Shown piece after piece: positions 3,671 to 7,998 of a stretch of DNA of 54,848 bases; positions within the stretch are counted from its first letter, which is position 1, and each line of letters begins with the position of its first letter. The stretch covers positions 1 through 54,848 of IMG/VR virus record IMGVR_UViG_3300036852_000068. One strand, written 5' to 3'. The notes under the pieces were generated by a model. The model was not told the origin of the DNA, ran no database searches, and saw only the letters and a program-made list of their open reading frames with translations. A program made the position numbers and the translations under genes. The stretch comes from a virus. Lineage: Duplodnaviria > Caudoviricetes.

Positions 3671-4404
3671 CGCCATATTACTCAGAAGCGGGGATTGAAA
3701 TCTGGCTGGGTGATTGCCGTGAAATATGGCCGACCTTGGGAGAGATCGATCTAGTCTGTACCGACCCGCCATTTGAAGCTGAGGCTCATACGCCAATGCG
3801 ACGAACCAACAGGAGTATTCAAACAAAAGAAAACGTCGCTATGCCGTTTGCGCCGATTACGGAAGAATTGCGTGGCTGGTTGACTAACATTCAATGTAAC
3901 TGGCTCTTAGCATTCTGCCAAGCCGAAGCCGTTAGTATTTACCAAGTGTCTCTGGGATTAAAATATCGTCGCCCTATGGTCTGGGTTAAGCCTGACTCAG
4001 CACCGCAATTCACCGGGGATCGTCCGGCGATGGGTTATGAGTCTATCGTCTGCGCGTGGATGGCAGAAGGTAAGAGTCGCTGGAACGGTGGCGGGCGGCG
4101 CGGGGTGTTCACGTACAGCGTCAATGGTTACGAACGATGGCATCCAACACAAAAACCGTTACCGCTGATGACGGAACTAATCTCACTGTTCAGCTTGGGC
4201 GGGGTGATATGCGACCCCTTCCTCGGTAGTGGTACCACTCTCCTCGCTGCCAAACAACTGCGCCGCAAGGCTGTAGGGATCGAAATTGAGGAACGTTATT
4301 GTGAAATCGCAGCTAAAAGATTAATGAATTGTCCTGAGCCGTTGGCATATGCGCCGATAGCGCAAGAGAAGGTTGAACCTGTTTCGCTGTTTGCTGCTGA
4401 GTGA
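3667..4404 (+). CDS. Orphan DNA methyltransferase 1 (N6A/N4C, beta class)
   Basis: TDPPF catalytic motif, HPTQKP, DPFLGSGTT SAM-binding motif, GIEIEERY; GTG start overlapping the clamp stop (GTGA). Confidence 0.9.
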   Translation: MTPYYSEAGIEIWLGDCREIWPTLGEIDLVCTDPPFEAEAHTPMRRTNRSIQTKENVAMPFAPITEELRGWLTNIQCNWLLAFCQAEAVSIYQVSLGLKYRRPMVWVKPDSAPQFTGDRPAMGYESIVCAWMAEGKSRWNGGGRRGVFTYSVNGYERWHPTQKPLPLMTELISLFSLGGVICDPFLGSGTTLLAAKQLRRKAVGIEIEERYCEIAAKRLMNCPEPLAYAPIAQEKVEPVSLFAAE

Positions 4405-4411
4405 TCACTGA

Positions 4412-5932
4412 ATGGAACCTTACTACCAAGACGAGTCAATAACGATATTCAGCGCGAGTTGTCTTAATGCGCTTCCGTATCTTGCTGATTGCTCCGTTGA
4501 TTCAGTCGTTACCGATCCGCCTTACGAGTTGGGATTCATGGGTAAGTCTTGGGATCGCTCTGGCATCGCTTACAACGTCGAAGTCTGGAAAGAATGTTTG
4601 CGCGTCTTGAAGCCCGGTGGACATCTTCTCGCCTTCGGAGGATCGCGTACTTACCACCGATTAGCTTGCGCGATTGAAGATGCAGGGTTTGAGATTCGGG
4701 ATCAAATTCAATGGATTTACGGCTCAGGATTTCCCAAAAGTTTAGACGTTAGCAAGGCAATTGACGCGGCAGCGGGCGCAGAACGGGGAGTAATCGGACG
4801 AGCTAAGGGAGCGGCGTCAAGTCAGACGCATAGCCTCGGCGTGTTTGCCCCTTCTTATGACGCGACCGCTCCCGCAACCGAAGAAGCAAAGCAATGGAGC
4901 GGTTGGGGCACAGCATTGAAGCCAAGCCATGAGCCAATAATATGGGCTCGTAAACCCTTGACTCCTGTTCTTATTGAGAGTAAACTAGTAGCAGAAACCC
5001 AGCATTTAATCGGGAGCCTGCTATGCCAATTACTATCAAGTGCGAACAGTGCGGAAGTGATTTTAGCGTCAAGCCCAAGCGTGTCAGGCGAGGCGTCCGC
5101 TTCTGCTCTACTGCTTGCCGCCGTGCTTCGTGGGCCATCGTTAGACGGGTGGTGCGAGCGGATGGCTACGTGCAGCTCACAGGAAACGGTCTCAACCTGC
5201 TTGAGCATCGCGTCGTCATGGAACGACATCTTGGACACGCTCTTGAATCGTGGGAGCAGGTTCACCACCGAAACCATAATCGGTCTGACAACCGCATTAA
5301 AAACCTTGAACTCTTATCTATCGGAGATCATGCCCGCGAGCATCATCCGGGACGCGTCCCTTCCTGTTGGCGAGTTGCTAAATGTAGAGGTTGCGGAAAG
5401 CAATTTGAGCGACGGGCCAAAGAGCTTGAGGCTCACCCAAGAGCATACTGCTCGCGTACTTGCTTCGTTACGTCAGGTGCTCACATCTGCCAACGGTGCG
5501 GAAGCCGGTTTCACGGCGGCGGCTCGCGTCGCAAATTCTGCTCTACGATCTGCTATCACACATCTCGAAGAAAGCCTGCCGCCTGAAACTCGCCCCGCAC
5601 ACGAGCCGATTGTGTTAGCTCGTAAGCCTCTTATCGGAACCGTCGCAGAGAACGTCTTACAGCACGGAACGGGCGGGTTGAATGTTGATGGATGCAGGAT
5701 CGAAACCGTTGACGTGTATTCGTATCCAAACGGCCCCGGCGGTAAATCACACCACTACAGCAGTGACAAACGCAGCGTTGAAGTTCGCCCTAATCCCGCC
5801 GAGAGCAATCCGTTAGGCCGCTGGCCCGCAAACGTGATTCTGTCCTATCCCGAAGATGAATACGAACTTTGCGCAAGTGTGACCGCAGAGCAAAAGAAAG
5901 AACTGTTTCAGTGGCTTTATGAGAACGCCTAA
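4412..5932 (+). CDS. DNA methyltransferase 2, N-terminal piece (contains a 224-aa in-frame insertion overprinting HNH-1)
   Basis: VTDPPYELGFMGKSWD, RVLKPGGHLLAF, WIYGSGFPKS, GWGTALKP, HEPIxxARKPL (twice), GRWPANVIL. Confidence 0.9.
   Translation: MEPYYQDESITIFSASCLNALPYLADCSVDSVVTDPPYELGFMGKSWDRSGIAYNVEVWKECLRVLKPGGHLLAFGGSRTYHRLACAIEDAGFEIRDQIQWIYGSGFPKSLDVSKAIDAAAGAERGVIGRAKGAASSQTHSLGVFAPSYDATAPATEEAKQWSGWGTALKPSHEPIIWARKPLTPVLIESKLVAETQHLIGSLLCQLLSSANSAEVILASSPSVSGEASASALLLAAVLRGPSLDGWCERMATCSSQETVSTCLSIASSWNDILDTLLNRGSRFTTETIIGLTTALKTLNSYLSEIMPASIIRDASLPVGELLNVEVAESNLSDGPKSLRLTQEHTARVLASLRQVLTSANGAEAGFTAAARVANSALRSAITHLEESLPPETRPAHEPIVLARKPLIGTVAENVLQHGTGGLNVDGCRIETVDVYSYPNGPGGKSHHYSSDKRSVEVRPNPAESNPLGRWPANVILSYPEDEYELCASVTAEQKKELFQWLYENA
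4958..4986 (+). promoter_or_regulatory. Internal sigma70-type promoter for HNH-1
   Basis: TTGACT-17 bp-TAAACT inside the insertion, followed by GGGAG RBS and ATG at 5023. Confidence 0.6.
5023..5586 (+). CDS. HNH homing endonuclease 1, overprinted in an alternative frame inside the methyltransferase
   Basis: EHRVVMERHLG..L...EQVHHRNHNRSDNRIKNLEL (HNH_3 type) plus three CxxC...(F/Y)CSxxC zinc-finger repeats; own RBS. Confidence 0.9.
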   Translation: MPITIKCEQCGSDFSVKPKRVRRGVRFCSTACRRASWAIVRRVVRADGYVQLTGNGLNLLEHRVVMERHLGHALESWEQVHHRNHNRSDNRIKNLELLSIGDHAREHHPGRVPSCWRVAKCRGCGKQFERRAKELEAHPRAYCSRTCFVTSGAHICQRCGSRFHGGGSRRKFCSTICYHTSRRKPAA

Positions 5933-6548
5933 TTGCAAATGCTTGGTCTGTGATAAGCCGCTTTATCGCCGTCCGTATGAGTTGGCGAAAGTGAGGCATG
6001 TTGCGTGTATGACGCACAGAGCCGAAGCACAGAAGATTTCAGGTATCACCGAAGCGCAACGAGCGGGGCTATCACGCGGCAGGGTGAAGGGCGATAACCG
6101 CCGGACGGGTTGCAAGCAAAGCGAAGCGATGAAGCAAAAAGTTTCAGAAGCGAACCGAAAGTATTGGGCGTCACACCCTGACGAACTCGCCGCCAGAGGC
6201 GAGCAGATGCGCGGAGAGAATCACTACAAATGGAAAGGCGGCGCGACAAAACTCAACATCGCAATCCGCCAGATGAATGAAAACCGAAAATGGATGGACG
6301 CGGTGAAGGAAAGAGACGGCGGCAAATGCGTTCGCTGCGGTAGTGCCGATCAAGTGGAAAGCCATCACATTATCGAACTCGTGATGCTGATCGAACTTTA
6401 TGAAGTAAAGACGCGAGATGAAGCACGCGGCATCACGGCATTTTGGGATTTAGACAACGGCCAAACACTTTGCCAGCGATGCCACTACGCGCATCACGGG
6501 AGAACCTATCGTGAGGATCGAAGAGAAAACCTACAACTTGCTGCCTAG
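5919..6548 (+). CDS. HNH homing endonuclease 2, splitting the methyltransferase gene
   Basis: NUMOD3-like KQSEAMKQKVSEAN, GENHYKWKGG, RDGGKCVRCG...ESHHI...NGQTLCQRCH. Confidence 0.9.
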   Translation: MRTPNCKCLVCDKPLYRRPYELAKVRHVACMTHRAEAQKISGITEAQRAGLSRGRVKGDNRRTGCKQSEAMKQKVSEANRKYWASHPDELAARGEQMRGENHYKWKGGATKLNIAIRQMNENRKWMDAVKERDGGKCVRCGSADQVESHHIIELVMLIELYEVKTRDEARGITAFWDLDNGQTLCQRCHYAHHGRTYREDRRENLQLAA

Positions 6549-7299
6549 CCATCTGAAAGCCCTGTTTCGGAAGCTGCCGAACCATGGATCGGATGAAGTG
6601 CTGGCGGGGTTTCCTGAGACAGGGATAAGTGCAGGCGGCGGCATGAAAGACTTACAAAAGGGCAAGTTGTTTCAGGGCGAAACTAATCCCAATATCACCA
6701 ACACGTCGGGATTTGGCGATTTCGGTTCTGCAGCCCGTTTCTTCTTTTGCGCGAAAGCCTCTCAAGAAGAACGCAATGCAGGACTCAGTGGCGGCGTTCA
6801 ATTGCTTGACTGTGCTGCGCTAGTTTGCTACCCTTCCCGATCATGGGTATTCGCGGCCCTCAATCAAAGGCTCCTGGAGGATACGGTAGCATTAGCAAAA
6901 AAGGCTACCGCCGAATCTATGATCCAAACGAGCGAAGGTTTCGTATGGAGCATGTGCTTGTGTGGGAGTCCTACAACGGACATATTCCACCCGGCTATCA
7001 AATCCATCATCGAAACGGAAACAAAATTGATAACGAAATTGGAAACTTGGAACTCCTCAGCCCAACCGCACACAAACGGCTGCATGGCGGCTGCGTTTGG
7101 CGTGACGGCCAATGGCGGAAACCTTGCAAGCTATGCGGAATTTCAAAGCCCATTAATGCGTCAAACTGGTATCTCAGCAAAGAAGGATGGCCGCTATATG
7201 GTCGATGCCGACCTTGCCACGTCAATAAAGTCGTGGCTGACAAGCGCGCCCGTAGGAGGCGGGCAAAGGATGGGAGTGCGTAATTCCCATCCTACGTGA
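6511..7299 (+). CDS. DNA methyltransferase 2, middle piece (in-frame insertion overprinting HNH-3)
   Basis: GGGAG RBS and GTG start; HGSDEVLAGFP, GSAARFFFCAKASQEERNAGL ... RNSHPT then TGA. Confidence 0.8.
   Translation: MRIEEKTYNLLPSHLKALFRKLPNHGSDEVLAGFPETGISAGGGMKDLQKGKLFQGETNPNITNTSGFGDFGSAARFFFCAKASQEERNAGLSGGVQLLDCAALVCYPSRSWVFAALNQRLLEDTVALAKKATAESMIQTSEGFVWSMCLCGSPTTDIFHPAIKSIIETETKLITKLETWNSSAQPHTNGCMAAAFGVTANGGNLASYAEFQSPLMRQTGISAKKDGRYMVDADLATSIKSWLTSAPVGGGQRMGVRNSHPT
6806..6834 (+). promoter_or_regulatory. Internal leaderless promoter for HNH-3
   Basis: TTGACT-17 bp-TACCCT with extended -10 TG; ATG 8 nt downstream at 6843. Confidence 0.55.
6843..7283 (+). CDS. HNH homing endonuclease 3, overprinted in an alternative frame
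   Basis: EHVLVWESYNGHIPPGYQIHHRNGNKIDNEIGNLELL plus C-terminal CxxC...CxxC. Confidence 0.9.
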   Translation: MGIRGPQSKAPGGYGSISKKGYRRIYDPNERRFRMEHVLVWESYNGHIPPGYQIHHRNGNKIDNEIGNLELLSPTAHKRLHGGCVWRDGQWRKPCKLCGISKPINASNWYLSKEGWPLYGRCRPCHVNKVVADKRARRRRAKDGSA

Positions 7300-7569
7300 A
7301 CAGTCAAGCCTCTAGCCTTAATGCAATACCTAATCAAACTCATTACTCTACCAAACGGAATAGTGCTCGACCCGTTTGCCGGATCAGGCAGCACGCTTAT
7401 AGCAGCAAAGCAGTTAGGGTATAAAGCTATTGGGATTGAGAAAGAGGAAGAATATTGCGCTATCGCCCAGCATCGGCTGCTAAATCTTCCTGAGCCACTA
7501 ACCTACGATGAGCCGATTAAGCCTGCTAAGCCAGCGCGGATAGTTGAGCAACCGGAGTCGCTATTTTGA
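7300..7569 (+). CDS. DNA methyltransferase 2, C-terminal SAM-binding piece (same frame as 6511..7299, after the TGA)
   Basis: TVKPLALMQYLIKLIT..NGIVLDPFAGSGSTLIAA..GIEKEEEY; no RBS before ATG 7321. Confidence 0.8.
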   Translation, partial: TVKPLALMQYLIKLITLPNGIVLDPFAGSGSTLIAAKQLGYKAIGIEKEEEYCAIAQHRLLNLPEPLTYDEPIKPAKPARIVEQPESLF

Positions 7570-7641
7570 TTACAATCAAAGCCCAATTCTTTTCCGTCAA
7601 CGGCTACCGGCCGCTCGCGCGTATGAAAGGATACAACACCT

Positions 7642-7998
7642 ATGCGACCTATACGCTTGTATGTTTCCGGCCCAATGACCGGCTATCTTGATTTTAACTA
7701 TCCCACATTCGAATCAGCCACCAAGCAGTTACGCGCCGCAGGCTATGAAGTTGTTAGTCCGCATGAGTTGGTAACGGATACTACTCTTGATTGGAAAGAA
7801 TGCATGAAGGTAGATATTCGCGCGCTACTAGATTGTGAAGGCATCGCTACTTTAGAGGGTTGTGAGAAGTCAAAGGGTGCAACACTTGAGAATACGATTG
7901 CCGCCGCAATGGGAATGGAAATTAGGACATTAGCCGACTGGTTGGATAAAGCTATCGAAATACAGCACAAAGCGGCACAGCGGCGAACTGGACTATAG
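7642..7998 (+). CDS. DUF4406-family protein (nucleoside deoxyribosyltransferase-like fold)
   Basis: YVSGPMTG..DFNYPTF...GYEVVSP...CM..DI..LLDC.......EKSKGATLE pattern. Confidence 0.8.
   Translation: MRPIRLYVSGPMTGYLDFNYPTFESATKQLRAAGYEVVSPHELVTDTTLDWKECMKVDIRALLDCEGIATLEGCEKSKGATLENTIAAAMGMEIRTLADWLDKAIEIQHKAAQRRTGL

Follow-up and report, generated by a model that had tools for sequence, protein, structure and literature searches.

How can a phage gene take in a second, complete gene and still keep its own reading frame open, and by what means is a gene so concealed expressed? These questions are raised by Insert 1, an insertion in a DNA methylase gene of a virus (Duplodnaviria; Caudoviricetes) represented by IMG/VR record IMGVR_UViG_3300036852_000068. 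The entire 54,848-base record was analysed and is referred to here as the window. Insert 1 is a homologue of the published ShiLan domain, located at the same site and in the same methylase family, and its kind is not new. Additions to the published account include statistics on the open host frame, a conserved promoter and Shine–Dalgarno sequence, and the movement, together with the element, of the first of two copies of a short peptide that flank it. Judged from sequence comparisons, Insert 1 is very probably a ShiLan-type hidden HNH homing element that carries its own promoter and ribosome-binding site and is lodged in a beta-class N6/N4 methylase gene after the motif GWGTALKP.

Two genes in one stretch of DNA

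The methylase open reading frame (ORF) that receives Insert 1 spans positions 4412–5932 on the plus strand and encodes an N-terminal fragment of 506 residues. It is stop-free through Insert 1, and its TAA codon (5930–5932) falls within a further insertion, Insert 2. The Pfam family PF01555 (N6_N4_Mtase) covers only residues 29–182 of the product (E 3e-12). Insert 1 occupies a conserved site of PF01555 methylases between ALKP and xEPxVxARKPL, with junctions as in phages Filuzino, Mantra, MISSy and Cr-LKS3. The codons for the conserved left flank, GWGTALKP, lie at 4901–4924 (plus strand) and overlap the start of copy 1 of the repeated peptide, KPSHEPIIWARKPL, at 4919–4960. Copy 2, RPAHEPIVLARKPL, is found at 5591–5632 on the same strand and is followed by the methylase sequence IGTVAENVLQHGTGGLNVDGCR; flank motif comparison places the codons for the conserved right flank, IGTVAENV, at 5633–5656 (plus strand). 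The spacing from copy to copy is 672 nucleotides (nt), or 224 codons. The copies are identical at 10 of 14 residues, yet at only 24 of 42 bases, and by reading of the sequence different codons are used at seven of the ten residues common to both. Between them lie 210 methylase-frame codons (4961–5590, plus strand) without any family match; they are overprinted on both the HNH gene and its promoter region, and a low-confidence loop is predicted for them.

The HNH endonuclease ORF runs from 5023 to 5586 on the plus strand, at offset +2 to the methylase frame, and leaves just 62 nt 5′ and 4 nt 3′ of itself between the two copies. Its 187-residue product matches HNH_3 in Pfam (E 7e-11) and, weakly and under the family cut-off, the zinc finger zf-FCS (E 0.0038); reading of the alignment reveals three zinc ribbons built from cysteine pairs. 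The invariant residues common to the homologues from Cr-LKS3, from locus L002 and from the mycobacteriophages Filuzino and Mantra are all retained. The same offset of +2 was found in 6/6 loci examined (the window and five others) and in 43 of 46 rows with both flanks, the remaining three not fitting the HNH pattern used. Every ORF, peptide and signal that an earlier note, made from the letters alone, had listed for Insert 1 is present where the note placed it, including the recoded peptide 224 codons downstream and the methylase frame open over 4412–5932.

Whether the host frame is kept open by selection can be judged from relatives of the HNH gene, which were collected from viral contigs (7 loci), metagenomes (best 80 of 447) and species genomes (53 loci). 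Among 143 loci with a tblastn match, the family was defined by a methylase flank motif beside the HNH in the +1 frame. This class comprised 76 loci, minus two chance matches (L105, L137); six loci without motifs had a long +1 ORF, five of them at the same site with divergent flanks and one rearranged (L062). The resulting family of 80 loci falls into 52 clusters when grouped at 90% nucleotide identity. Over the HNH segment its members contain 1 stop in 12,789 methylase-frame codons and 79 of the 80 are stop-free, as against 220 stops in 5,338 codons (4.1 per 100 codons) for free-standing HNH relatives of at least 100 codons, of which 0/35 are stop-free. At 46/46 loci with both flank motifs the gap is divisible by three and stop-free, two of these rows being short chance spans. 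The family amounts to a natural experiment, on a large scale, on whether selection keeps the host frame open, and it bears out the proposal of a dual-coding mobile insert made in the earlier note.

Substitutions between close pairs point the same way for the nuclease: most are at the third codon positions of the HNH gene (counts such as 5/5/20, 7/5/22 and 0/0/9 across the three positions), the pair L024/L025 being an exception (9/8/5). Because each HNH third position coincides with a second position in the methylase frame, the overprinted peptide is free to evolve, barring stops.

Three members of the wider collection deserve mention in their own right. The single methylase-frame stop is that of L080, whose HNH is without the first zinc ribbon. 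In L062 (1900–3700) GWGTALKP and the copy 1 region have been lost and the methylase halves stand in different frames. L063:1-750 is a free-standing HNH relative with a third zinc ribbon like that of the window, directly downstream of a methylase stop codon; its +1 frame contains 4 stops, and it may represent an intergenic ancestral state.

Expression signals and mobility

The HNH gene is preceded by a sigma-70-like promoter (4958–4986, plus strand) made up of TTGACT (4958–4963), a 17-nt spacer and TAAACT (4981–4986), with 9/12 matches, and by a Shine–Dalgarno sequence, GGGAG (5012–5016, plus strand), 6 nt ahead of the ATG at 5023. Both signals were compared over the interval from ALKP to the HNH start in 46 unique family sequences. 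The best −35/−10 pair lies at the offsets seen in the window (33 and 56 nt after ALKP) in 28 of them, and in 35 if the −35 box may be displaced by 1 nt; promoter scores average 8.96, against 6.60 for shuffles (standard deviation 0.18, maximum 7.07 in 200). A Shine–Dalgarno-like word stands 4–8 nt before the HNH start in 40/46. When 45 sequences are aligned on the start codon, the motifs T-A-t-A-A-T (−39 to −34) and T-G-G-A-G-G (−13 to −8) emerge. The Leu-Thr codons with which copy 1 closes spell out the −35 box in many members, and in the window this box begins in the last codon of that copy. Because this stretch lies 5′ of the HNH coding sequence and in an unconstrained part of the methylase frame, its conservation is best read as regulatory. 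The built-in promoter and ribosome-binding site suggested in the earlier note are thus matched by signals whose positions are conserved across the family.

For the ShiLan domain, Arsenault et al. (2025) could detect no ribosome-binding site and proposed leaderless initiation at an upstream GTG (PMC11855218). The mycobacteriophage members have GGAGG 4 nt ahead of a GTG aligned with Met1 of the window protein, a start that differs from the published one. On the evidence of these sequences, the conserved promoter and Shine–Dalgarno element would offer a concrete answer to the question, posed in the published papers, of how the hidden nuclease is expressed.

The distribution of the repeated peptide was followed in homologues of the 506-residue product, taking the best 120 of 8000 scored. 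Insert-free proteins account for 68 of these; exactly 14 residues separate their flanks and the peptide occurs once in 68/68, so that the duplication which the earlier note had named as telling against its proposal, if present in insert-free homologues, was found in none of them. An insert of 188–291 residues with both copies is present in 30, and 22 fell outside the flank patterns used. All 68 insert-free proteins keep the K, P, E, P, A and R of the peptide unchanged.

In an alignment of 80 insert-bearing proteins the two copies have relaxed differently. Glutamate is kept in 79 cases in copy 1 (residue 174) and in 54, with a further 11 aspartates, in copy 2 (398), whereas the following proline is kept in 38 (175) and 69 (399) and the arginine in 34 (180) and 70 (404). 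Alanine (179 and 403; 75 and 74), lysine (181 and 405; 79 and 76) and the second proline (182 and 406; 73 and 79) are retained in both. In the left flank K170 is kept in 79/80 and P171 in 80/80. The conserved positions of copy 1 use all synonymous codons, which indicates that the constraint acts on the protein. By this token copy 1 is under strong protein-level selection, and this is a puzzle.

That the element moves, and that copy 1 moves with it, is apparent from a gapped alignment of 36 loci. Four pairs (L002/L020, L009/L011, L040/L041 and L058/L059) have inserts 99.6–100% identical within flanks of 55–78% identity, and in these pairs copy 1 is 97–100% identical; in six further pairs with inserts 92–95% identical, the identity of copy 1 is 78–94%. 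Copy 2 tracks the insert less closely, with 75% identity in L009/L011. In three of the four near-identical pairs (L009/L011, L058/L059, L002/L020) the block of identity shared among diverged methylases starts within the GWGTALKP codons, some 20–30 nt ahead of the end of the KP codons, and in L009/L011 and L058/L059 it ends 4–9 codons into copy 2. Since copy 1 follows the insert, and given these block boundaries, copy 1 is part of the mobile element and copy 2 is mostly host sequence. The idea that the element carries a diverged copy of its target peptide is sustained by these exchanges between diverged methylases. From residue 2 onward (PAHEPIVLARKPL), copy 2 of the window equals the peptide that P0010, a relative of 67% identity with an empty site 1, has only once. 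The closest relative of the window insert is only 62% identical, and the evidence for transfer thus applies at the level of the family, not to the window copy. An empty allele was sought in two DNA runs that contain the stretch and from which the contig may have come, and no contig joining across any insert was found.

Other repeats occur in this group of methylases. P0054 (660 residues) has a longer one, with NGWGTALKP and the strand present twice, which points to another junction, or to another element in this region. The 792-residue methylase of L002:2247-4625 also contains a tandem duplicated segment (GRFPANVIL ... ASRFF, twice), apart from its HNH insert.

Fold, further inserts and competing explanations

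What becomes of the methylase protein was addressed with AlphaFold2, the input being the 506-residue product together with 80 insert-bearing sequences. The model has a mean predicted local distance difference test score (pLDDT) of 62.8 and renders the insert as low-confidence helices. Most values between residue 168 and about residue 341 are below 50, and those from there to about 395 are 50–70. Residues 168–188, which include copy 1, are below 50 and without secondary structure, whereas copy 2 forms a strand of the methylase sheet (residues 396–404; block pLDDT 61, then 91). P0002, a full-length relative of 650 residues, gave a similar picture: copy 2 is a strand at 442–446 (block pLDDT 88), and both the copy 1 region (219–233) and residues 246–378 are below 50. 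This model aligns with M.BceJIV over 231 residues (Z 24.8, root-mean-square deviation 3.1) and with CcrM (Z 24.6); the aligned range, 1 to 650, implies that the parts on either side of the insert take part in the fold. The earlier note had pictured the element as supplying a replacement strand that completes the host fold while the overprint loops out. The looping-out survives as a prediction; the strand, in contrast, is assigned to the mostly host-derived copy 2 and not to the unstructured copy 1. A further suggestion of the earlier note was that the recoding might protect the occupied allele from cleavage.

Insert 1 is not the only insertion in this gene. The HNH ORF of Insert 2 (5919–6548, within 5850–6580) splits the methylase. 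The N-fragment ends at 5930–5932 with the tail SYPEDEYELCASVTAEQKKELFQWLYENA, and a closely similar tail ends 9 of the 120 best homologues; the head of the C-fragment, MRIEEKTYNLLPSHLKALFRKLPNHGSDEV (from 6511), recurs at the N-terminus of P0129–P0132, P0136 and P0140, and L079 has Insert 2 junctions as in the window. To go by these sequences, the Insert 2 form appears to be a two-piece enzyme that is being maintained, and its conserved tail and head peptides may be used for docking. Insert 3 (region 6825–7302) is a second hidden HNH gene of the HNH_3 type (6825/6843–7283), nested at offset +2 in the ORF 6511–7299. Its TAA stop overlaps Arg-Asn codons of the host frame, which then reads NSHPT, TGA (7297–7299) and TVKP. 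P0122–P0125, of 43–61% identity, likewise end in RN(S/F)HPT, and eight viral relatives continue without a stop into HP(T/C)VKP (HSTVKP in L160). The Thr-stop-Thr arrangement (ACG TGA ACA) might serve for hopping or readthrough, or else mark a true split with a restart at the ATG at 7321, where the third methylase ORF (7321–7569) begins. Inserts 2 and 3 both appear to be maintained forms.

The host gene is the second methylase gene of the window; it starts at 4412 and has a sliding-clamp gene and the first methylase gene as neighbours. The enzyme is related by sequence to DpnA, CcrM and RsrI and shows the traits of beta-class N6A/N4C methyltransferases, namely a DPPY motif, a C-terminal FxGSG motif for S-adenosylmethionine and, going by the model of the relative P0002, a CcrM-like fold, the motifs being spread over separate ORFs in the window. 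As a separate observation, Mantra gp64 (L010:925-3249) contains an in-frame LAGLIDADG-type segment near the methylase N-terminus, already described in PMC11855218 and PMC9957025.

Several observations weigh against the view of Insert 1 as a self-expressed element within a living host frame. A promoter scan of the window gave 2 sites, against a shuffle mean of 2.8, and the promoter is not above chance when taken alone. When the HNH gene of the window was shuffled among synonymous codons, the methylase frame remained stop-free in 230 of 3000 trials, so that its openness is only mildly unlikely. The retention of E, A, K and P of copy 1 in 73–79 of 80 proteins, with the copy 2 glutamate at 54/80, sits poorly with copy 1 as a passive loop; the insert is modelled with low confidence; and the window methylase is interrupted further, by the stop at 5930 and a frame change at Insert 2 and by the in-frame TGA at 7297. 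Two of the 80 relatives, L080 and L062, are broken, which falls well short of the frequent stops or frameshifts that the earlier note had named as speaking against it. The same shuffle test left the frame open in 29 of 3000 trials for L002, 552 for Cr-LKS3 and 83 for Filuzino: single-ORF shuffles are moderate and the family contrast is decisive, and the open-frame signal therefore rests on comparison between loci, not on the window alone.

Some of these points would also be expected if the window methylase were already dead, the open frame at Insert 1 having been inherited from a functional ancestor and the 506-residue product being a remnant. The gene is indeed cut at 5930 and at 7297, the shuffle test confined to the window is weak, and decayed alleles occur in L062 and L080. 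This explanation is nevertheless improbable: nine of the 120 best homologues retain the Insert 2 tail and several C-fragments start with the head that matches it, the stop after HPT is common to four other proteins of 43–61% identity, and every methylase motif in the pieces is intact, so that the pieces look like maintained split forms rather than decay. A further reading concerns the fold itself, and holds that copy 1 is the sheet strand or that both copies are used, as a folding surrogate later displaced or in a strand-swapped dimer. The glutamate that is invariant in empty alleles (68/68) and better kept in copy 1 than in copy 2 speaks for it, as do the retention of A-x-K-P with all synonymous codons in use and the relaxation of the copies at different invariant positions, copy 1 losing P6 and R11 and copy 2 loosening K1, P2 and E5. 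Two AlphaFold2 models, however, both built with insert-bearing sequences only, use copy 2 (block pLDDT 88–91) and leave copy 1 without secondary structure at a pLDDT below 50–57, and it is copy 2 that runs directly into the conserved GTVAxNV segment. A strand role for copy 1 is rather unlikely, and with it the supply of a working strand by the element. One idea is put forward tentatively: copy 1, kept by protein-level selection, might be a structural patch or folding surrogate that helps the methylase to put up with the 210-residue loop, which together with a sigma-70 promoter whose −35 box lies in its last codons would make two undescribed adaptations. If this were true, the element would be a self-sufficient cassette representing a third way beside introns and inteins, with host-protein repair built in.

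Removal of the insert before or after translation was weighed as well. Phage group I introns often carry HNH genes, and Insert 1 might be an unrecognized or degenerate self-splicing intron, excised from RNA, whose repeats mark the splice sites. Arsenault et al. (2025) noted that the first 11 residues of the insert resemble those following the site and weighed this similarity as a possible group I signature (PMC11855218, section 3.1), but found no intron or intein signal and an insert that AlphaFold models as a loop (PMC11855218). Between the copies the HNH ORF leaves free no more than 62 nt on its 5′ side and 4 nt on its 3′ side, and a stop-free host frame, needless for a spliced intron, is kept by 79 of 80 loci, which counts against one. 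No Rfam intron family was found at E up to 5 in 4300–7700, although an ORF-filled or novel ribozyme could escape detection; over the whole window there were no Rfam matches at gathering score, and no tRNA was found. An intron is on these grounds very unlikely. An atypical intein removed from the protein is hardly credible at all, even though the insert lies in the host frame and within a conserved motif, as inteins do. Pfam gives N6_N4_Mtase alone for the 506-residue product, with no Hint or intein domain, the nuclease sits in a different frame, and neither model (506-residue product or P0002), nor that of PMC11855218, has an intein fold. The in-frame peptide is moreover a by-product of the HNH frame: its sole near-invariant residues, W270 and L299, overlie conserved HNH codons, W270 arising, by reading of the sequence, from the Met-Glu codons of the HNH motif.

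Under the favoured explanation, a ShiLan-type hidden homing element, the methylase would be translated straight through Insert 1 with neither RNA nor protein splicing. The roughly 210 overprinted codons would form a floppy surface loop, and downstream copy 2 would provide the sheet strand leading into the target-recognition part. The HNH protein would be made separately, by transcription from near 4993 (about 7 nt past TAAACT) and translation via GGGAG and the ATG at 5023. It would then cut empty alleles, whose repair would copy the element in, and copy 1 would travel with the element and be kept by protein-level selection.

Relation to known systems

The closest known system is the insert that Gosselin et al. 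(2023) named the ShiLan domain and showed to pass from one diverged methylase to another (PMC9957025). Arsenault et al. (2025) described its out-of-frame HNH in the third frame and a host frame without stops (PMC11855218). The HNH protein of the window is 39.1% identical to that of ShiLan over 78% of the query (E 2e-22). It matches nested ORFs beneath the annotated methylase genes of the Cylindrospermopsis phage Cr-LKS3 (51.7% identity) and of at least 10 mycobacteriophages among the matches listed, with 37–41% identity to copies that include ShiLan, Mantra and Filuzino. When the 506-residue product was used as a tblastn query, Cr-LKS3 was the only phage matched in one piece (92% of the query); its annotated methylase of 616 residues has similar two-copy junctions and a nested HNH ORF. 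Translated Filuzino gp74, Mantra gp64 and MISSy gp100 have the insertion site and the repeat as in the window.

Insert 1 and the ShiLan domain share the methylase family and the site, after GWGTALKP and before xEPxVxARKPLxGTVAxNV, as well as a homologous HNH in the third frame beneath a stop-free host frame. In both, the start of the insert repeats residues that come after the site, and the two also agree, at the level of the family, in a disjunct distribution with near-identical inserts within diverged methylases. The window element differs in residing on a soil-metagenome viral contig and not in an actinophage, in an extra third zinc ribbon of its HNH, and in the ATG start, clear Shine–Dalgarno sequence and sigma-70-type promoter of that gene. 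Its repeat measures 14 residues, its HNH stop lies 4 nt 5′ of copy 2 whereas in the ShiLan type it is inside copy 2, and its host gene bears two more HNH elements. ShiLan-type elements are evidently not confined to actinophages: a cyanophage, numerous viral and metagenome contigs, and assemblies that bear the labels Betaproteobacteria, Cloacimonadota and Kribbella all have homologous inserts at the same codon. Neither PMC11855218 nor the available text of PMC9957025 contains the words promoter, duplicat*, cyano* or metagenom*. The present findings refine a known kind without changing it.

Set against other mobile elements, Insert 1 resembles inteins with homing-endonuclease domains in being selfish, in homing into conserved motifs and in being translated in the host frame; unlike them it has no splicing domains, its nuclease lies in another frame and the insert is apparently retained in the protein. 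Group I introns with an HNH gene, such as that of I-HmuI, likewise place an HNH homing endonuclease with its own expression signals in a phage gene, but no ribozyme was detected in the window and the host frame is open, something not required of a spliced intron. Some phage genes are split by free-standing homing endonuclease genes, exemplified by mobE in Aeh1 nrdA and mobA with T4 gene 60; these are neither introns nor inteins, and in their case too the host gene must cope at the level of protein or translation. Insert 2 resembles that type, whereas Insert 1 does not split its gene and leaves the host frame continuous.

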